A stretch of DNA of 64,000 nt from an uncultured Bacteroidales bacterium (lineage in GTDB: Bacteria > Bacteroidota > Bacteroidia > Bacteroidales > FEN-979), in NCBI GenBank assembly GCA_903915465.1, contig CAIWTA010000120.1, positions 591 to 64,590 on the forward strand. The letters are read 5' to 3'. The notes under the pieces were generated by a model. It saw only the letters and a list, made by a program, of their open reading frames with translations, was not told the origin of the DNA and did not search any database. The position numbers were made by a program, and so were the translations under genes. Positions 1,367 through 10,058 of this stretch are shown piece by piece (the first letter of the stretch is position 1; every line of letters begins with the position of its first letter).

Positions 1367-1392
1367 ATCTTTTCCTTGCGTCAAGATTCCGG

Positions 1393-1425
1393 CGTTCCGG
1401 CTAAGGCCGGAACGTCTATTTTTTG
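1393..1425 (+). terminator. Rho-independent terminator
   Basis: cgttccggc (1393-1401), loop taag, gccggaacg (1406-1414), then tctatttttt. Confidence 0.65.
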
Positions 1426-1643: not shown

Positions 1644-2276
1644 ATGTCAGCAACTAACTATGAATACGATGTTTTTATCAGTTATAGAAGAACTGATACT
1701 GGGACTTTTTGGGTCAAGGAGTATTTTAAACCACGATTAGAGGAAGAAATACAACAAGCTTATGGAGGACCTGTTAAAATATTTTTCGATTCAGCTGATA
1801 TCCCAGTCGGTGCAAATTGGCCTAATACAATAAAAACAGCGTTGGCTACTTCACGTTGCATTGTCCCTGTGTTTTGTGGATTGTATTTTCAATCAGAGTG
1901 GTGTGTACGTGAGTTTGCGGTGTTTCATAATCGTCAGGAGATATTAAATCAGGGGAGAGTCATTAATCCTTATGAAATAATTCTCCCTGTTCTGGTAAGA
2001 GATGGCAATCACCTTCCACAGTCAGTCAATAGAATATTTAAATCTGTATTGAAAGATTATTTTACCGGTTGTGTTTCGTTTCGAACTTGCCCAGATTATA
2101 GAGATTTTGAAAGGGAGATTGTCAAACTTGCAGATGAAATTAGCAATGCGTTGAAAACGAAAACCCCAGTATGGGACAAGAGGTGGCTTTTAAATGAATG
2201 GTTAGATGAAGTCCCCATTAATCATTTTTTAAATCAAAGACCAGTTGTACTCCAAGAAAATCCTACATTAAAATGA
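1644..2276 (+). CDS. Stand-alone TIR domain protein
   Basis: YDVFISYRRTD start motif and SEWCVREF helix with a candidate catalytic Glu (codon 90, nt 1911-1913). The stop overlaps the next start (ATGA at 2273-2276). Confidence 0.85.
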   Translation: MSATNYEYDVFISYRRTDTGTFWVKEYFKPRLEEEIQQAYGGPVKIFFDSADIPVGANWPNTIKTALATSRCIVPVFCGLYFQSEWCVREFAVFHNRQEILNQGRVINPYEIILPVLVRDGNHLPQSVNRIFKSVLKDYFTGCVSFRTCPDYRDFEREIVKLADEISNALKTKTPVWDKRWLLNEWLDEVPINHFLNQRPVVLQENPTLK

Positions 2277-5149
2277 GCAATATAATTACTTTCTATTCAT
2301 ACAAAGGAGGCGTTGGAAGATCAATGGTTCTTGCCAACGTTGCAACGATGTTATCCAAATGGGGATTCAAAACCTTGATTGTCGATTTTGATTTGGAAGC
2401 CCCCGGTCTCCATTATTTTTTTAATTCTCAAATCAGAAATTTCAATGATCTTGGAAAAAGAAAGGGCATGTTGAATTTCTTAAATCAGGATCATAAGAAC
2501 CCTCGATTAAAATGGCAAGACCTTGTTGTTCCCATAATTATTCAACCAACTAGCAAGGAAAAAAACATCAATCCCAGTACAATTGATTTAATTCTTGCTG
2601 GTAACAAAGGTGAATCAAGTTATACCAATGAATTAAAGAAGTTTAATGCAAGAAATTTCTATAAGAACCATAATGGTAGTATGGTTATCGAAAAATTACG
2701 TGATGATTGGAAAAATAGCTATGATTTTATCCTTATTGATTCAAGAACTGGAGTCACAGATATTGGTGGAATATGCACTATTCAATTACCGGATATTCTC
2801 GCTACTTTGTTTACCGCAAATGAACAGGGTTGGATAGGAATAAAAGACATTACTGTTAAAGCAATAAAAAATCACAATGACATTCCTTTTGAAAGGGAAA
2901 GGTTAAAAGTTTTTCCCATTCCGACACGTATTGATAATACTGAAAAATTACTTACTGAAGAATGGCTTAAAAGATTTTCTGAAGAGGTAAAGTCAATTAT
3001 AGGCAATTGGATACATACTGAAATAAACATTAGGCAATTTATTGATAAAATTTATGTGCCTTATATCCCTTATTATAGCTTTGGTGAAAGACTTTCTGTT
3101 CTTGATGGTACATCAGATCCTAAGGGTATTGGCTATGCTTTAACAACAATAGCTTCATTACTTGCAAATAGATTAGTGGATAGCAAGCTGTTTTTTGATT
3201 CTCGTGATGAGTATATTCGGAAGATTGAAAATTCAATCAAAGAGAGACAGTCAGCAGAAATAATGAATGATAGTAGATTAAATACAGTTAAACTATCTGT
3301 TATTGGAGAATCCGCCTCAGGAAAATCCACATTAATAGACGCCTTGTTTTTCAATAATATTCAATCATATGATTTGGAGTCAACACATGGTTTAGAGACA
3401 ACAAAATATATTTTTAAATCAAAAAATGAAAATTACCGCATTAATATATGGGATTTTGGAGGGCAGGAAATTTATTCGGGCATCTATCAATTTTTCCTCA
3501 CAAAAGGATCGATAATATTGTTAGTGCTAGATTCTAGAAACATAGAACTCTCTTTACAAATCGAAAACTGGTTGGCAACCATAAATTTGTTAACAGAATC
3601 TAGTCAAATTTTTATATTCCTTAATGACAAAATAAAATCATCCAGACCCACTGGTTTCGATTCATTAATGTTTCAAAAAAATTATCCAAACGTTAAAGTG
3701 TTTACAGGAAGTATTCGTGAAACCGAGACAACTGAATTATTAAGAGATGAAATAGAAAAGGTTGTCACATCTTTTCCTTCTGTTATTATACCAAGGTCTT
3801 GGAGAAACATTCTAGACAAAATTGATAATATTGTTGATTCCTGCTCATATATTTCCCTCGCTGAATTTTCAAATATATGTAAAGAGTTTGGTGGAATTAA
3901 TGATAGTGATCAAGTGTTAGAAATAACTTCCTTATTTCATAGTAATGGTACTATAATTCATTATCAGGATGATTCTTATCTGAAAGATTATATTTTTATT
4001 CGTATAGGTTTAATAATAAAAGCTGTTTATAAAATATTTGAAGATAGTAATTTGATTAACGTTTCTAAAGGGTATTTTGATCAAAAGGACCTTGAAAAAA
4101 TTTTGAATGATGAGGAATTTAAGGACCTTCATTATGCAATTTTAAAATTAATGTTAAAATTTGAACTTGCTTATACATTTAATAATCAACAATTAGAGAA
4201 ATATCTTATTCCACAATTATTATCGCCAATACAACCCGATTATAATTGGGAATCGTTTAACACGTTGCACTTTATTTACCAATATGAAGTTGTTCCCAAG
4301 GGGCTACTAAATAAACTAATTATCAGGTTGCAGCATTTGATTACTGATTCTAAACTATTATGGAGAAATGGTTTTGTTGTAACATATGAAGAGAGCAAGG
4401 GTGAGGTTATTGAAGATTTTTCCAAAAGAAAAATTATGGTAAAAACTAATGGCATAAATAGTAAAAGCTTATTAATTAATATTTCAAATGAAATTGATAC
4501 GATTAACAATGAATACGCTTTGCTTAAATGTGAAAAATTGATACCATGTAATTGCAAAGAATGTCAATCAATAGAAAATCCATTCTATTTTAGTTATGCT
4601 ACTCTGAATAGTTATTTGCAGCACAAAATGCATGAGGTACCTTGTCCGAACTCATCTTTAATGATATCAATTCGAGATCTCATTGAACCATTTTCAAAAT
4701 TTGAAGTAGGTAAAAACAGAAAGAAATCACCAGTGAATATTTTCATATCATATGCTCATGAAGACCTTGATATGAAGAATAGTATTGAAAAATATTTATG
4801 GCCTCTTAAAAAAGATCAAAATGTTTCTATTTGGTTCGACCAGATGATTGAACCTGGAACAAATTGGAAAAATGAAATTCAACAAAAAATGTCAGATTCA
4901 GATATAATAATTTGCATTGTAAGTGCTGATTATTTAAGTAAAGATTATATTTGGGAATTGGAATTAAAAGATGCCTATGCGCGAAACAAAAAGATAATTC
5001 CAGTAATCTTAAGGCCTTGCCTTTGGGAGGATACCATTTTAAACAATTTTAGTGCGTTGCCTAATCAAGGAAAGCCGATTTCAAAATTTGAAGATAAAGA
5101 TGAAGCCTTCAATGAAATTGCGAAAAACCTAAAAATATTAATTGAATAG
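2273..5149 (+). CDS. Multidomain protein: KGGVGR-type ParA/MinD-like ATPase - Roc GTPase - COR - Cys cluster - TIR
   Basis: aa 1-300: SYKGGVGRS, VDFDLEAPGL, FILIDSRTG. aa 338-500: GESASGKST, WDFGGQE, LNDK. aa 505-755: COR-like (LFHSNGTIIHYQDD, LIPQLL, LWRNGFVV). aa 753-791: CxxxxxCxCxxC...C. aa 820-958: TIR (VNIFISYAHED, DYIWELEL). Confidence 0.85.
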   Translation: MSNIITFYSYKGGVGRSMVLANVATMLSKWGFKTLIVDFDLEAPGLHYFFNSQIRNFNDLGKRKGMLNFLNQDHKNPRLKWQDLVVPIIIQPTSKEKNINPSTIDLILAGNKGESSYTNELKKFNARNFYKNHNGSMVIEKLRDDWKNSYDFILIDSRTGVTDIGGICTIQLPDILATLFTANEQGWIGIKDITVKAIKNHNDIPFERERLKVFPIPTRIDNTEKLLTEEWLKRFSEEVKSIIGNWIHTEINIRQFIDKIYVPYIPYYSFGERLSVLDGTSDPKGIGYALTTIASLLANRLVDSKLFFDSRDEYIRKIENSIKERQSAEIMNDSRLNTVKLSVIGESASGKSTLIDALFFNNIQSYDLESTHGLETTKYIFKSKNENYRINIWDFGGQEIYSGIYQFFLTKGSIILLVLDSRNIELSLQIENWLATINLLTESSQIFIFLNDKIKSSRPTGFDSLMFQKNYPNVKVFTGSIRETETTELLRDEIEKVVTSFPSVIIPRSWRNILDKIDNIVDSCSYISLAEFSNICKEFGGINDSDQVLEITSLFHSNGTIIHYQDDSYLKDYIFIRIGLIIKAVYKIFEDSNLINVSKGYFDQKDLEKILNDEEFKDLHYAILKLMLKFELAYTFNNQQLEKYLIPQLLSPIQPDYNWESFNTLHFIYQYEVVPKGLLNKLIIRLQHLITDSKLLWRNGFVVTYEESKGEVIEDFSKRKIMVKTNGINSKSLLINISNEIDTINNEYALLKCEKLIPCNCKECQSIENPFYFSYATLNSYLQHKMHEVPCPNSSLMISIRDLIEPFSKFEVGKNRKKSPVNIFISYAHEDLDMKNSIEKYLWPLKKDQNVSIWFDQMIEPGTNWKNEIQQKMSDSDIIICIVSADYLSKDYIWELELKDAYARNKKIIPVILRPCLWEDTILNNFSALPNQGKPISKFEDKDEAFNEIAKNLKILIE

Positions 5150-5194
5150 TTATATATATTTCGATTAATCACCCTGAGAAACAATAATAAAATT

Positions 5195-5863
5195 ATGAAT
5201 TTTCTAATTGTTATGAGTATGACAAATAGCTATTATTTTTTTTTTAGCGATCAACAAGCTGAAACAAAATATTCAATTGAGCCACTTTGGTGGTTGTTAA
5301 TAATTGTAGCTGCTATTATCTTGGTTGGGGGTCTATATTGTTTTTTTAGTAGAAAGAAGTATCGGATTGTGAATATGGGCTTCGAGGTATCTGGAAGCCC
5401 CAAATTTACTTTTAATGTTGAAAGGAATACCCAAAATTTATATATAGCGAATCGCATCTATATGGAGTTAATTACTCGTAAAGCCGCACTTGAATTTGAA
5501 GAGGACAAAGATGTTATTATAGAAGTATATAATTCATGGTATAAACTATTTAACATTATTAGAGAAGAAATCAAAAATGTGCCTGGCGATTATTTAATAA
5601 ATCATGATTCATCAAAAGCTCTTATAGGTTTAACTGAAAAAATTTTAAACCTAGGCCTACGACCTCATTTAACAGCCTATCAGGTAAAATTTAGAAAATG
5701 GTATACTTCGGAAACAAAAAAGCTTACAAACATGAACCTTACTCCACAAGAAATTCAAAAAACGTATCCCTATTATGCTGATCTTGTTGTTGATTTGAAA
5801 AAAGTAAATAAAGTATTAATTGATTATTCAAAAGATTTATTAACTCTTATTCAGAAAAATTAG
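5195..5863 (+). CDS. Membrane-anchored protein of unknown function (one TM helix, helical C-terminal domain)
   Basis: 222-aa ORF 45 nt after the ROCO-TIR gene, with the same strand and AT-rich composition. TM helix LWWLLIIVAAIILVGGLYCFF is followed by SRKKYR. The start could be an internal Met. Confidence 0.6.
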   Translation: MNFLIVMSMTNSYYFFFSDQQAETKYSIEPLWWLLIIVAAIILVGGLYCFFSRKKYRIVNMGFEVSGSPKFTFNVERNTQNLYIANRIYMELITRKAALEFEEDKDVIIEVYNSWYKLFNIIREEIKNVPGDYLINHDSSKALIGLTEKILNLGLRPHLTAYQVKFRKWYTSETKKLTNMNLTPQEIQKTYPYYADLVVDLKKVNKVLIDYSKDLLTLIQKN

Positions 5864-6027
5864 TAGTATTGTAGTCTTTTTTTAATTATCTTCCTATAGA
5901 AATGTTTTCCATCGATTTGATTCAACGAGAATTTAGTTGTTTCATGCTTTTATGGATTTTAACTGATAGAAACTAGTCAATTATCTTTTCACGATTGAAA
6001 AATCACCTATTGCACTCTAATGTTATT

Positions 6028-6963
6028 TTACAAAATAGATGTATTAAAAATTATATTATCAAACAGTATCTTATTTCCAAATTTAGCGTAAAGTATTTTA
6101 TTTTCAGTTTCATCTAAATAGGTTCGACCAAGATCATCTTTTGCAATGCTTACTTGAATGCCTGAACTTTCTAATATCAAGACGTCTGGATTTATTAAAT
6201 AAGCTGCAGCAAGTGGATCCCATGCAAAATATAAATTATCATATATCCAATTCTCAACATTTTTAAGAATTGAGTATGTTATTTTGTTTTTTCTATTCTT
6301 CCATTTACTAAATACTAAATAGCTCTTATCAATTTTAATGGAATTAGACGCATCTAAAGGAACCAAAATAATATTTTTTAAATAGCTTAGACAAATCTTA
6401 GCTGCCAAAGGATCACAATAAAAGTTCCATTCTGAAAACCTGTTTTTTGTTTCATTAATTTCATTGTCGAAAAGATTTCCTTCAACACTAATTGCTCCAC
6501 CCATTATGATTGTGGTAATGGATCTGAGCTTTCCCATCCTATCATTAACAATAAGATTTTCAATATTTGTCAACGGTCCTAAAGTCAGTAGAAACTGATT
6601 ATTCGCTTTGAAAGAATTTAAAATATTTATAGCATCAAATTCTAGAATTCGTTTATTTCCTGAATTAATATTTAATACTTTATATCCTACTTCAGTTGAT
6701 TGCTGCTTCCAACTTTTAGGAAAGAAATTAGTCTTACCTAGTGAATCACTTTTGCCTATATAAATAGGGGTATTTATATGCCCATAATAATCTAGAAGTC
6801 TTCGAATTATTTGAGCACCATCCTTAGGTTCAGTCAACCCATGAACACATGACACACCTATAATTTCAATATTTCTTGAATTTAATAATAGATCTATGGC
6901 GATTAGATCATCAGTTCCACAATCGGTATCTATAAAGACATGTTTTACTTCAACTGAGCACAT
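6028..6963 (-). CDS. Inosine-uridine-preferring nucleoside hydrolase (IUNH) family protein
   Basis: N-terminal VFIDTDCGTDDLIAIDLLL matches the DxDxxxDD fingerprint of IUNH-family ribohydrolases. Length is 311 aa. Confidence 0.8.
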   Translation of the reverse strand: MCSVEVKHVFIDTDCGTDDLIAIDLLLNSRNIEIIGVSCVHGLTEPKDGAQIIRRLLDYYGHINTPIYIGKSDSLGKTNFFPKSWKQQSTEVGYKVLNINSGNKRILEFDAINILNSFKANNQFLLTLGPLTNIENLIVNDRMGKLRSITTIIMGGAISVEGNLFDNEINETKNRFSEWNFYCDPLAAKICLSYLKNIILVPLDASNSIKIDKSYLVFSKWKNRKNKITYSILKNVENWIYDNLYFAWDPLAAAYLINPDVLILESSGIQVSIAKDDLGRTYLDETENKILYAKFGNKILFDNIIFNTSIL

Positions 6964-7058
6964 AAATGGGTAGATAATTATGATTTTATATATTTAGAAG
7001 AATATTCTAAATTCGAGAGTAACATGAATTGTTATATTAAGTTGTAAAAATCAGTGAA

Positions 7059-8480
7059 TTAATCGAGTCTCCAGATTTTATTAATTTGCTGGAATTGCGT
7101 TATGATATAATCAAATGGTAAATTCTTTCCGATTTTTGCAATTTCAATATTTAGCACATTTGATGGGACAAGTAAGTCAGGATGACCCCATGGTCTTTCG
7201 ACTTCTTGTCTTGGACTAAAAATCCAAATTGTTTTAAGACCAAGATTTTTTGCAGGTATAATATCTTTTTCTAATGAGTCACTTATAATAGCTATTTCAT
7301 CAGGAGGGAAATTGAATTCTTCAATTACCTTAAGCAGCAATTCTATCTTTAGTCCTGTTTCATCTGTACTATCACCAGACACAATTAAATCAAATAGATC
7401 TGGTTTTAAATCAAGCAATTGCATTCTTAAATCGAGGGTAGAAGGGGAAGCGTTAGTAGCTATGGCTGTTTTAATTCCTTTTATTTTCGCTTTGAAAAGA
7501 TATTCCTGAACCCCAGGGAATAAATGGATATAGCGTGAATTTTCATAATGAACCCTTTTAAAATCTTTAAATGAAAGACCAAGGGTCAAGCAATGTTGGA
7601 GATAGTCGTACCATAACCTATCCTTTTTATCAAAAAGATCTTTTAGCCATTTGTGATATTCTTTAGCCTCTTCTTTATTTCTGGGTATACTAACGCACAA
7701 GGCATCATCAAATGAATCTTCTTCGACCAATGTTTTACGCCAATCGAAGATTATTAGTTTTGGCAAGGTTGGTGGTGTAAGATAAATATCGTGGTTATTG
7801 AGGTTAAAATTTGGTGAATATGTTACAATTTGCCAAATCCTTTCTTTAGATATTTGAGTATATGATGAAATTGCCTCAATACTAAAACGATTTTCACATA
7901 CTATTGCAAATTGTATTGCTGCCTCTTCAGGAAAAAGAAATGCTCTATTTTCCAAAGTAATTATTCCCAAATGAGCATCAGATTTAACATCAAAGAAGAG
8001 TTTTGGAGGGATTACTATTTTATTTAGTTTATCTATTCTGTCACTACGAAGAAATTGCTTTAGTAAATCAAACCTATTTATTGTAACCGTTGGTTTACCT
8101 TTAAGTTGCTGTACGAGTTTTTCCAAATTCAGCGAATAGTCATCACCAAATATGTCAAAACACTTTCTATGGGAAAGAATTGGAGGTAGGGGCACAAAAT
8201 CCAGTCTTGCAGGAATAACCTTTATTGTGGAATTGAGGTGTTCTTTCATTAAGGCAGTTGCCCATTCCTCTTGTATCCAATTATTTTTCTCAGTATTTTT
8301 TGAGAAAAAAACAAGTAAATATTTAGCATTATTTATAGCCTTCGAAATTGACAAAGGAATTGAATCTCCGAACAAAATCTCATCTTCATCAAGCCAAAAA
8401 TCAATATCATATAAACGTAAGTCCTTTGCGATTTTCCTTATTGCGTTTATGTCAGCTGATGCATGTGAGATAAATATCAT
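7059..8480 (-). CDS. TIR domain - linker - HAD-superfamily hydrolase-like fusion protein
   Basis: N-terminus MIFISHASAD...NNWIQEEW (TIR). C-terminus has LIIFDWRKT (HAD motif I with Arg at D+2), IATNAS (motif II) and ISDSLEKD (motif IV). Confidence 0.8.
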   Translation of the reverse strand: MIFISHASADINAIRKIAKDLRLYDIDFWLDEDEILFGDSIPLSISKAINNAKYLLVFFSKNTEKNNWIQEEWATALMKEHLNSTIKVIPARLDFVPLPPILSHRKCFDIFGDDYSLNLEKLVQQLKGKPTVTINRFDLLKQFLRSDRIDKLNKIVIPPKLFFDVKSDAHLGIITLENRAFLFPEEAAIQFAIVCENRFSIEAISSYTQISKERIWQIVTYSPNFNLNNHDIYLTPPTLPKLIIFDWRKTLVEEDSFDDALCVSIPRNKEEAKEYHKWLKDLFDKKDRLWYDYLQHCLTLGLSFKDFKRVHYENSRYIHLFPGVQEYLFKAKIKGIKTAIATNASPSTLDLRMQLLDLKPDLFDLIVSGDSTDETGLKIELLLKVIEEFNFPPDEIAIISDSLEKDIIPAKNLGLKTIWIFSPRQEVERPWGHPDLLVPSNVLNIEIAKIGKNLPFDYIITQFQQINKIWRLD

Positions 8481-8698
8481 ATGGGATTTTTTATCAATAT
8501 TATTGTTTTATAACATTTTACATGGTAAATTTATAGAAATTTTATTGTGAATATCCAAATTCTTTATAACTATTTATATAGACCTATTAGCATAATCCTT
8601 GTATTAACCTGATTAATATATTTAAGGAATTTTGCCCTTCTTAATTCTCGAATTACACTTACACTTCGACTTCACTTTGTAAAAGGAAATTATATATT

Positions 8699-8722
8699 TT
8701 TGGATACCCATTTGGATACCCA
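8699..8722. repeat. Tandem 12-mer tttggataccca x2
   Basis: Exact tandem duplication immediately distal to the tRNA-Leu terminator, at the island edge. Confidence 0.8.
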
Positions 8723-8754
8723 AAAAAGAAAAACCCACGATTGACGTGGGTTTT
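8721..8754 (-). terminator. Rho-independent terminator of tRNA-Leu
   Basis: On the minus strand: AAACCCACG, loop TCAAT, CGTGGGTTT, then TTCTTTTTT. Confidence 0.65.
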
Positions 8755-8767
8755 AGTGGTGTTTTCG

Positions 8768-8851
8768 TACCCGGAGCCGGAATCGAACCGGCACGAGATT
8801 ACTCTCATTGGTTTTTGAGACCAACGCGTCTACCTATTCCGCCATCCGGGC
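8768..8851 (-). tRNA. tRNA-Leu (anticodon CAA), type II with long variable arm, no encoded CCA
   Basis: Reverse complement is GCCCGGATGGCGGAATAGGTAGACGCGTTGGTCTCAAAACCAATGAGAGTAATCTCGTGCCGGTTCGATTCCGGCTCCGGGTA. It has an acceptor stem, D loop, anticodon stem TTGGT/ACCAA with loop CTCAAAA, and T arm GGTTCGATTCC. Confidence 0.9.
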
Positions 8852-8960
8852 GAAGTGAGTGTGTGTTTGAGTGTGATGGAAGTATTGGTGTGGAATGTGT
8901 GAGAAGTGCATATGGGTGAAGTAAGTGTATGTTTAGGTGTGTTTTAGCTTCCGTCCGTGG

Positions 8961-8984
8961 CCCCTCCCCCAATTGGGGGAGGGG
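8961..8984. repeat. Perfect G/C palindrome cccctcccccAATTgggggagggg
   Basis: 10-bp stem with a 4-nt loop. A related copy lies at 23142-23179. Confidence 0.7.
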
Positions 8985-9119
8985 AACGGGGTGGAGGCAG
9001 GGCTGCAAAAGTAAACAAATTTTCTTTTCAAACACAAACCTTACTACATTGGCATAGTTTAATTTGCAGGATTTCAAAGAATAGCTTAATTTCGCGCCCG
9101 GATTTAAACCTCCTTTGGC

Positions 9120-10058
9120 ATGCCAAATCAAGTTAAAATTTTCTCTGGCCGGGCCATGAACTTCCTGGCACAAAAGATCGCAAAAAATTACGGTACCGAC
9201 CTTGGAACTGTTGTTGTCACGGATTTTTGTGACGGTGAATTCCAACCATCATTCGAAGAAAATATCAGGGGAAACGACATTTTTATTGTGCAGTCTACTT
9301 TCTCACCAGCCAGCAACCTGTTAGAACTACTCATGCTGATTGATGCAGCCAGAAGAGCCTCGGCGAGAAATATCATTGCCGTGATTCCCTATTTCGGATA
9401 TGCCCGCCAGGACCGCAAAGATAAACCCCGTGTTTCTATAGCTGCCAAATTGGTGGCAAATCTGCTTTCTACTGCCGGCGTTCAGCGTATCATCACCATC
9501 GACCTGCATGCCGACCAGATCCAGGGGTTCTTTGACGTCCCCGTCGACCACCTTTATGCTTCATCCATCTTTTTGCCTTATCTCCGCAACCTTAACCTGC
9601 CCAAGCTTACAATGGCTTCTCCTGACACAGGTGGAACACGAAGGGTGGCTGCATATGCAAAGTTCCTGAATACCGACTTTGTAATCTGTTACAAACAACG
9701 ATCTAAACCGAATGAAGTAGATAAAATGGCGTTGGTGGGTGAAGTCGAAGGACGTGATGTGATCCTTGTCGACGACATCGTTGATACTGCCGGTACATTG
9801 ACCAAATCAGCAGAAATCATCATGGCCAATGGCGCCAATAGCGTCCGGGCAATCTGTACGCACCCCATACTATCAAATAATGCGGTCGAAACAATCGAGA
9901 AGTCAGTTTTATCTGAACTCGTGGTCACAGATACTATTCCTCTGCAAAAAGAATGCAAAAAAATCAAAGTCCTTACTACCGCCAGCCTCTTCGCCGAAGT
10001 CATTAAACGCGTGGAAAGCCATGAGTCTATTAGCTCTTTGTTCAAATTTGGAGAATAA
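9120..10058 (+). CDS. prs: Ribose-phosphate pyrophosphokinase
   Basis: Full-length match to the Prs pattern (IFSG..., VIPYFGYARQDRK, DLHADQIQGFF, ILVDDIVDTAGT). Confidence 0.95.
   Translation: MPNQVKIFSGRAMNFLAQKIAKNYGTDLGTVVVTDFCDGEFQPSFEENIRGNDIFIVQSTFSPASNLLELLMLIDAARRASARNIIAVIPYFGYARQDRKDKPRVSIAAKLVANLLSTAGVQRIITIDLHADQIQGFFDVPVDHLYASSIFLPYLRNLNLPKLTMASPDTGGTRRVAAYAKFLNTDFVICYKQRSKPNEVDKMALVGEVEGRDVILVDDIVDTAGTLTKSAEIIMANGANSVRAICTHPILSNNAVETIEKSVLSELVVTDTIPLQKECKKIKVLTTASLFAEVIKRVESHESISSLFKFGE

Follow-up and report, generated by a model that had tools for sequence, protein, structure and literature searches.

A putative Thoeris-like operon joining a small TIR protein, a ParA-like ATPase-Roc-COR-TIR protein and a candidate membrane effector in an uncultured Bacteroidales bacterium

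The genome of an uncultured Bacteroidales bacterium (assembly GCA_903915465.1) encodes a cluster of three open reading frames (ORFs) that brings together two TIR domains, two NTPase domains and a membrane protein. We describe it within a window of 64,000 nucleotides (nt), positions 591 to 64,590 of contig CAIWTA010000120.1; coordinates given without another accession are those of the window. ORF1 (1644-2276, plus strand) encodes a small TIR protein of 210 amino acids (aa), ORF2 (2273-5149, plus strand) a 958-aa ATPase-Roc-COR-TIR protein and ORF3 (5195-5863, plus strand) a 222-aa single-pass membrane protein of a TIR-associated family. We propose, with a probability of roughly 0.5, that these genes make up a composite, Thoeris-like defense operon acting by TIR-based abortive infection, for which we infer the trigger, the product of the TIR domains and the activity of ORF3.

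The ORF1 stop and the ORF2 start share an ATGA (junction aaaATGAgc), giving a 4-nt overlap, and an AT-rich spacer of 45 nt lies between the ORF2 stop and the ORF3 start. A preliminary description of this DNA had listed the three co-directional ORFs, the overlap and the 45-nt distance, all of which are confirmed in the sequence, and every motif position that it quoted is correct (KGGVGRS, A' box, Walker B, G1, G3, Cys cluster and DYIWELEL). Its suggestion that ORF1 and ORF2 are translationally coupled is supported by conservation of the 4-nt overlap in relatives. No terminator is predicted in the interval between ORF2 and ORF3. The family alignment indicates that the true start of ORF3 may be its third methionine (M9, ATG at 5219; region 5195-5221), in which case the spacer after ORF2 would be 69 nt and not 45.

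ORF1 matches Pfam TIR_2 (1.6e-13), with a TIR core at about residues 8-130. The motif SEWCVREF starts at residue 84 and includes the catalytic-position glutamate E90 (nt 1911-1913), which is invariant in the family alignment. ORF1 had been taken for a bare TIR domain, but it carries a conserved, family-specific C-terminal extension of about 85 aa (P175, W181 and a terminal PxL), which is missing from ordinary ThsB proteins. It scores 59.4 bits against the model for FxsC, the TIR-like protein of the FxSxx-COOH system (NF040588), below the cutoff of 130, and there are no radical-SAM or peptide genes of that context near ORF1.

Pfam, NCBIfam, a PDB sequence search and an AlphaFold2 model compared with Foldseek all support the ParA-like, Roc, COR and TIR assignments first made for ORF2 by eye. 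The model was built on 22 homologues and has a mean predicted local distance difference test score of 83.7. Its only low-confidence linkers are residues 327-333 and 810-818, so the protein splits into ATPase, Roc-COR and TIR blocks. The N-terminal block aligns with Soj, ParA, MinD, BcsQ and FlhG at about 1e-9 (TM-scores 0.73-0.79; Soj 1WCV, 1.7e-9), and the middle block with the C. tepidum RocCOR structure 3DPU (3.8e-27, TM-score 0.78), with 3DPT (TM-score 0.86) and with LRRK1/2. By sequence, the best PDB matches are M. barkeri Roco2 (4WNR, 3e-34), C. tepidum Roco (about 1e-23) and LRRK2 (1e-11). ORF2 has no match to NACHT, NB-ARC or other STAND families in Pfam or NCBIfam, and neither LRRs nor another repeat-type sensor domain were found in it.

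Residues 1-325 of ORF2 (2273-3247, plus strand) form a KGGVGR-variant ATPase of ParA/MinD/Soj fold. Residues 3-194 match NCBIfam NF047398, 'KGGVGR-motif variant AAA ATPase', with 148.3 bits (cutoff 90). The sequence KGGVGRS spans residues 11-17; the signature lysine K11 is kept and the canonical P-loop lysine is replaced by Arg16, so that the canonical deviant Walker A motif of ParA/MinD, KGGxGK[ST], is absent, and all ParA/MinD equivalog models score far below their cutoffs. The arginine is family-wide: the K-G-G-V-G-R P-loop is kept in 74 of 77 homologues. The A' box (DFDLEAPGL) lies at residue 37 and Walker B (LIDSRTG) at 152, and the motifs K-G-G-V-G-R-[ST], D-W/F-D-L-E-A-P-G-L and L-I-D-S-R-T-G are essentially invariant (74-77 of the 77). 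The variant ATPase site is therefore under selection and not decayed.

The ATPase is followed by a Roc GTPase at residues ~337-500 (3281-3772, plus strand; Pfam Roc at 340-451, 1.4e-18), in which G1 (GESASGKS at 345, with K351), G2 (T371) and G3 (DFGGQE at 393) are intact. A COR-A plus COR-B region then occupies residues 507-805 (3791-4687, plus strand; Pfam COR-A at 507-650, 1.2e-29; COR-B at 663-805, 1.5e-31). Near the end of COR-B (residues 757-792) there is a CxCxxC...C cluster formed by C759, C761, C764 and C791 (nt 4547-4645). This cluster had been noticed before and is real: each of the four cysteines is kept in 52-53 of 66 COR-B homologue sequences, about 80% of related bacterial Roc-COR proteins, and they are absent from C. 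tepidum Roco. It is probably a structural zinc site, of which we found no description for Roco proteins in searchable papers.

The C-terminal TIR domain covers residues 819-958 (4727-5149, plus strand). It matches Pfam TIR_2 at 823-920 (3.3e-17) and the PADLOC ThsB1 model (3.9e-31). Two glutamates in DYIWELEL, which starts at residue 891, had been put forward as catalytic candidates; E897 occupies the catalytic position and is conserved in 94 of 98 homologues, and E895 drops out. The best matches of this domain (1e-36 to 1e-21) come from KGGVGR-TIR and Roc-COR-TIR proteins. We considered and rejected an origin as the ThsB of an ORF3-type cluster fused onto a KGGVGR-Roc-COR protein, as matches to TIRs adjacent to ORF3 homologues reach only about 1e-5.

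ORF3 has one transmembrane helix (residues 32-55, nt 5288-5359) followed by a basic stretch. The basic residues suggest an N-out/C-in topology, so the helical domain at residues ~58-222 would be cytoplasmic. Members of the family share this layout, with a variable N-terminus of about 30 residues, where conservation is lowest, a single helix and a conserved helical domain of about 150 aa. Many polar residues of the domain are invariant: R77, N86, R87, E91, R95, K96, D106, W115, R123, E125, K127, N152, R156, H158, W169, Q185, Q188 and N205. The description of ORF3 as a single-pass protein with a helical domain of no recognizable family holds. Pfam (searched with 62 members at E<=1) returned noise only, and there was no match in NCBIfam, PADLOC or PHROGs. 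Attempts to place the fold by Foldseek against the PDB (best E 0.44) and the family by profile against PDB sequences (nothing below 0.05) failed.

The ORF3 family comprises at least 1077 clusters, and its best matches are 50-65% identical to ORF3 across phyla. The family is present in about 0.13% of species genomes. A scan of one genome per species recovered 233 relatives, of which the 80 best loci were studied. They come from Bacteroidota, Chlorobiota, Nitrospirota, Acidobacteriota, Planctomycetota, Verrucomicrobiota, Bacillota, Pseudomonadota and Spirochaetota, as well as from candidate phyla radiation bacteria and methanogenic archaea. The distribution is patchy and cross-phylum, resembling that of horizontally transferred genes. 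Neither the ORF3 nor the ORF1 family occurs in the 2.9 M viral contigs of IMG/VR, indicating that both are host-side genes.

The neighborhood of the ORF3 family is dominated by TIR genes. In a position-resolved census of 79 ORF3 loci, with genes more than five positions away in the same loci as internal control, TIR genes occupied 60% of positions -1, 42% of positions -2, 10% of positions -3 and 17% of positions +1, vs 0.6% (4/649) of the control genes. At least one TIR lies within three genes of the ORF3 homologue in 65 of the 79 loci (82%), and 32 loci have at least two. The gene at -1 is co-directional and at most 150 nt away in 60/77 loci. By Pfam, it is ThsB_TIR in 44/77 and TIR_2 in 16/77; position -2 has ThsB_TIR in 27/67 and TIR_2 in 26/67, and position +1 TIR_2 in 15/77 and ThsB_TIR in 9/77, together with restriction and helicase genes. 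These TIR genes are extremely diverse (mean column identity 5-6%) and keep their catalytic-position residues. No known Thoeris effector domain was found among the neighbors at -1, -2 and +1, and the only other recurrent neighbor is an Nmad2-type gene (10/79 loci). The order in the window, with ORF1 (a TIR), ORF2 (ending in a TIR) and then ORF3, follows the family pattern of two TIR genes and an ORF3 homologue.

Restriction-modification genes, helicases and CRISPR loci adjoin ORF3 homologues. On a plasmid of Aureispira sp. CCB-E, for example, four tandem TIR genes, one of them a TIR-SLOG, precede an ORF3-like 'hypothetical protein' next to CRISPR-Cas. In Puteibacter caeruleilacunae (L004/L007, locus positions 2528-9362), as in about 10 of the 79 ORF3 loci, genes of the thymidine-hypermodification type stand among the TIRs and the ORF3 homologue, namely Nmad2, a 5-hydroxymethyldeoxyuridine (5-hmdU) DNA kinase, a thymidylate-synthase-like gene, MazG and DUF1599. 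Because ORF3 is the only conserved non-TIR partner in these clusters, it is a candidate Thoeris-type membrane effector. Judged from sequence and context, it is a strong candidate for a signal-activated membrane effector without a known fold relative.

ORF1 and ORF2 belong to a second conserved unit. Its core is an unnamed two-gene module in which a small TIR protein with a C-terminal extension is followed by a KGGVGR ATPase with a variable C-terminus. A TIR gene lies directly upstream in all five ORF2 relatives examined. The three closest (L001, L002 and L003; 37-40% identity) have an ORF1-like TIR of about 210 aa with the same 4-nt overlap, and their ORF2 relatives lack the C-terminal TIR. 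Two architecture twins of ORF2 (L086 and L088; 27-28% identity) have upstream TIR genes of 419-431 aa. For 25 of 27 genuine small TIRs from a metagenome scan with the ORF1 family, the next gene was a co-directional KGGVGR ATPase gene that overlapped the TIR gene or began no more than 9 nt after it. The pair of a small TIR and a KGGVGR-TIR protein of about 740 aa also occurs on a metagenomic contig (L171) and in Archangium violaceum (L172, locus positions 4369-7226; about 692.5-695.4 kb of CP137851.1), where a 211-aa TIR and a 741-aa KGGVGR-TIR overlap by 4 nt. Archangium violaceum is a cultured myxobacterium and thus convenient for work on the minimal core pair. We found no paper on the pair.

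Given this conserved core, ORF2 is a Roc-COR-containing variant of the module. The 25 metagenomic ATPase partners range from 314 to 1236 aa and none carries Roc-COR. In the list of homologues the ATPase domain is fused to TIR alone, to NACHT/TPR-TIR, to LRR-Roc-COR with or without TIR, and to other modules; the full ATPase...Roc-COR-TIR arrangement appears in at least 12 clusters among the top 120 homologues. Proteins with LRR-Roc-COR-TIR and ATPase-(LRR)-Roc-COR-TIR architectures are numerous in databases. Roc-COR is a rare insert in the KGGVGR scaffold and a minority architecture.

The three genes sit in a low-GC island, with about 29% GC over roughly 2-8 kb vs about 42% in the flanks. An ArdC-like gene, typical of integrative and conjugative elements (ICEs), lies upstream, in line with the earlier view of an AT-rich mobile island beside ICE genes. 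An intrinsic-terminator-like hairpin (1391-1416, plus strand; 11-bp stem with 8 GC pairs and a T-run) ends the upstream 145-aa ORF and is predicted to bound the island and the transcription unit of ORF1-3 on the left, and the promoter region is presumed to be 1420-1643. A sigma-70 promoter scan gave 46 hits vs 41 expected from shuffles, with a model ill-suited to Bacteroidota-type promoters. On the right, the island is bordered by a tRNA-Leu(CAA) (8767-8851, minus strand) with a terminator-like hairpin beside it (8730-8754). This tRNA gene is a likely integration site of an ICE-like element. As part of the best explanation, we see about an even chance that the locus is cargo at the tRNA-proximal end of such an element.

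The ArdC-like gene is separated from the operon by two small ORFs (929-1366 and 340-555). The 145-aa protein, whose ORF ends at the terminator 1391-1416, has no family match, and the 71-aa, Cys-rich protein has a weak zinc-finger match. Both are kept in a second contig that bears the same island.

The island also encodes two minus-strand genes that the preliminary description left out of the locus. One is a TIR-HAD fusion (7059-8480, 473 aa) with an N-terminal TIR_2 and a C-terminal HAD phosphatase domain that resembles pyrimidine 5'-nucleotidases, with a score below the cutoff. The other, an inosine-uridine type nucleoside hydrolase (6028-6963, 311 aa), begins 95 nt after the TIR-HAD gene and is convergent on ORF3. 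ORF3 may receive a third TIR input from the TIR-HAD; alternatively, the TIR-HAD and the hydrolase may make up a pair of their own. Such a TIR plus nucleotide/nucleoside-degrading pair could, for example, destroy NAD breakdown products. We rejected the two genes as conserved partners, as neither the nucleoside hydrolase nor the HAD domain has a homologue in 168 related loci.

A defense role for the locus is well supported by context, and we propose the following mechanism. ORF1 would dock on the ATPase domain of ORF2 by way of the conserved extension at its own C-terminus. In ParA-fold ATPases the signature lysine mediates formation of ATP-sandwich dimers. Since ORF2 keeps this lysine, has an arginine for the P-loop lysine and has motifs under selection, its ATPase could be a nucleotide-dependent dimerization latch and not a motor. 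C. tepidum Roco alternates between a dimeric and a monomeric state in a GTP-dependent manner, and the Roc-COR part of ORF2 may likewise be a second, GTP-controlled dimer/monomer switch. The two switches would control the assembly of the TIR of ORF2 itself and of the docked ORF1 TIR. NADase or cyclase activity of TIR domains generally needs their self-association. An infection cue could shift both switches so that the TIRs (E90 and E897) self-associate and act on NAD+, making an ADP-ribose-derived nucleotide and/or depleting NAD+. The nucleotide would bind the invariant, Arg/Lys/His/Trp-rich cytoplasmic domain of ORF3, which may oligomerize and compromise the membrane, so that the cell is killed or arrested before phage release. 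ORF3 is expected to bind a small molecule rather than a protein, because the family is 50-65% identical across phyla and its TIR partners have a mean column identity of only 5-6%. The full scheme, in which a variant ParA ATPase and a Roc-COR module gate TIRs whose NAD-derived product opens a new class of single-pass effector, is tentative and, taken as a whole, rather doubtful.

Several observations weigh against the proposed operon or its mechanism. The G4 motif of Roc reads NDKIK (residues 451-455, nt 3623-3637) where N-K-x-D is usual, so that the guanine-specificity aspartate is replaced by lysine. The corresponding position varies among homologues (D35/E15/N9). This raises a question of nucleotide specificity for the ORF2 Roc domain. 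MinD/ParA-like domains in such systems have been predicted to be inactive (Kaur et al. 2020, PMC7159879). As the ORF3 fold has no structural relative, it is the conservation pattern that speaks for ligand binding. An ORF3 homologue is found in none of 86 ORF1/ORF2-type loci, the Archangium violaceum pair stands alone among housekeeping genes, and the TIR/KGGVGR pair can hence work without ORF3, probably through NAD+ depletion. The TIR of ORF2 groups with NTPase-fused TIRs and not with the ThsB-type TIRs beside ORF3 homologues. Such TIRs in Avs-type proteins are usually regarded as NAD+-depleting effectors. Finally, the TIR of the island that is most like those beside ORF3 homologues is that of TIR-HAD, on the opposite strand.

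Several of these points support a serious competing explanation, which we consider less probable than the composite operon: that two or three independent systems lie side by side. ORF1 and ORF2 would then be a self-contained NAD+-depleting pair with the TIRs as effectors and the dual NTPase as sensor/switch, much like Avs-TIR or bNACHT-TIR, and ORF3 would work with TIR-HAD, with or without the nucleoside hydrolase, or be an orphan remnant of a cluster of two TIR genes and ORF3. The 86 loci fit such independence well, as the core pair there comes without ORF3 or any other effector gene, and so do the closest ORF2 relatives, which lack both the C-terminal TIR and ORF3. The 17% of loci with a TIR gene at +1 would offer a precedent for TIR-HAD as the partner, but these genes are mostly co-directional with the ORF3 homologue and TIR-HAD is convergent, and no ORF3 homologue has a HAD or hydrolase domain among its neighbors. 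The placement of ORF3 also speaks against independence: it is co-directional with ORF2, starts 45 nt behind it with no predicted terminator in the interval, and takes the position after a TIR-coding sequence that is usual in its family.

ORF3 and the KGGVGR pair moreover co-occur independently in two unrelated genomes among the 80 ORF3 loci. Agaribacillus aureus (L019) has a tightly packed set of ORF3-like, TIR-Sel1, ORF1-like TIR and KGGVGR-Sel1-Ank genes. A Chlorobiaceae metagenome-assembled genome (L079) encodes ORF3-like, ORF1-like TIR and KGGVGR-TPR proteins; with no other TIR nearby, the ORF1-like TIR of the pair is the only one that its ORF3 homologue has at hand, which argues against independent systems. 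The three-gene linkage once expected to be conserved therefore holds in part: the small TIR stays with the KGGVGR ATPase (25/27), but ORF3 does not stay with ORF2 relatives (0/86). Functional coupling of ORF3 to ORF1 and ORF2 is the best-supported reading and is not settled.

It is improbable that ORF3 is instead a membrane-anchored sensor or scaffold that responds to phage entry or to a perturbed envelope by recruiting or activating NAD+-depleting TIRs. Its single-pass topology, its short external N-terminus and the lack of a recognizable enzymatic or pore-like domain would suit a sensor, and its TIR partners keep their catalytic-position residues. The external N-terminus is, however, the least conserved part of the protein. 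A cytoplasmic domain so conserved in the face of diverse TIRs is more in keeping with the binding of an invariant small molecule than with protein contacts that co-evolve, and sensing in characterized Thoeris systems falls to the TIR protein.

In other settings, ParA-like and Roco proteins have been tied to cell organization and development. Also improbable is a locus that serves ICE addiction or stabilization, the exclusion of competing elements or cellular signaling and not defense against phages: ArdC-like conjugation genes and a tRNA site do adjoin it, and Kaur et al. 2020 (PMC7159879) class MinD/ParA-like domains as cell-division-related effectors with a link to multicellular bacteria, but its three TIR domains have a conserved catalytic-position glutamate, both families have defense-gene neighborhoods, the distribution is patchy, cross-phylum and suggestive of horizontal transfer, and relatives are found outside mobile elements too.

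The composite operon joins known kinds of system, TIR signaling of the Thoeris type and NTPase-switch conflict systems, and is not categorically new. A recent preprint (Yirmiya et al., 10.64898/2025.12.03.692087) sorts Thoeris into 29 putative types, of which 11 are validated or known. It describes membrane effectors, established for type II and recently reported for types V-VII, that are activated by TIR-made cyclic ADP-ribose (cADPR) isomers or His-ADPR, and characterized systems in which the TIR protein acts as sensor. In Thoeris (types I-XI) a small effector gene comes right after one or more TIR genes; the candidate effector gene ORF3 and its homologues typically stand in this position, and some of their loci are multi-TIR clusters, as in type III. 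Membrane effectors occur in type II (Macro-TM), V (DUF2270), VI (DUF6650 with or without a transmembrane segment) and VII (SLATT). The conserved-glutamate TIRs (E90 and E897), the ThsB1 match of ORF2 (3.9e-31) and the coupling of the ORF3 family to TIR genes add to the likeness. In contrast to Thoeris effectors, ORF3 and 62 family members have no Pfam match (E<=1) to SIR2-SLOG, Macro-TM, SLOG, caspase-like, DUF2270 or DUF6650 domains, nor to SLATT, CMP hydrolase-TPR, TIR-SLOG, ion channel or HIT. One TIR is furthermore embedded in a 958-aa dual-NTPase protein and is not a small ThsB. The comparison is made from sequence, and it sets ORF3 apart from the named effector domains, not from the 18 further putative classes.

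Conflict systems with a Roc(AP-GTPase)-COR core and a variable C-terminal effector, with TIR among at least 24 effector domains, were predicted in silico by Kaur et al. 2021 (PMC8195603). ORF2 shares the core and the C-terminal TIR effector. Theirs begin with a rapidly evolving LRR sensor, whereas ORF2 has a KGGVGR ParA-fold ATPase, and it is accompanied in the operon by a small TIR and a membrane protein. The claim that no named system has this composition thus stands for PADLOC v2, which gives only domain-level matches (ThsB1 and PDC-M28B), and not for the Roc-COR-TIR combination, already predicted in that study. For PDC-M28, the PDC-M28B models match only the ATPase part of ORF2 (1.6e-22), and no PDC-M28A was found among the island proteins.

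The N-terminal 325 residues of ORF2 pass the NF047398 cutoff and have the same variant P-loop as the 'inactive MinD/ParA-like' domains that were noted in TIR/AP-ATPase proteins by Kaur et al. 2020 (PMC7159879). The KGGVGR domain is also present in TIR-, NACHT- and TPR-containing conflict proteins, among which the Roc-COR fusion is a minority form. With bacterial Roco proteins (C. tepidum 3DPU/6HLU/8R4B; M. barkeri 4WNR) and LRRK1/LRRK2, ORF2 shares the Roc, COR-A and COR-B fold and motifs G1-G3, including the Roco-typical DFGGQE. It differs from them by its TIR output, the replaced G4 aspartate, the four-cysteine cluster in COR-B and the lack of LRR, kinase and WD40 domains. NLR- or STAND-type logic had also been suggested. 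A nucleotide-controlled oligomerization switch with TIR output is indeed shared with STAND/NLR-like TIR proteins such as Avs-TIR and bNACHT-TIR, but the NTPases of ORF2 are a SIMIBI ParA-fold and a Ras-like Roc domain and not STAND AAA+. ORF3 is here the most informative of the three genes: because the partners of its family are TIR genes, the locus looks Thoeris-like, with a TIR signal acting on a membrane effector, and not only NLR-like.

We know of no cellular function for bacterial Roco proteins, and we found no experimental work in the literature on bacterial Roco proteins in immunity. They have served as structural models of LRRK2 for about 20 years, and a compact Roc-COR protein with a TIR output would offer NAD+ cleavage and phage protection as assayable read-outs of the GTPase cycle. 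The TIR/KGGVGR-ATPase pair is widespread and near-obligate and, as no literature on it was found, counts as a separate, unstudied TIR system. The ORF3 family is a widespread candidate membrane effector; the TIR-derived nucleotide that it would bind could be one already known or a new one. If the two switches do gate TIRs that open ORF3, the locus would provide the first physiological role for a prokaryotic Roco protein and a new class of Thoeris effector with a new fold.

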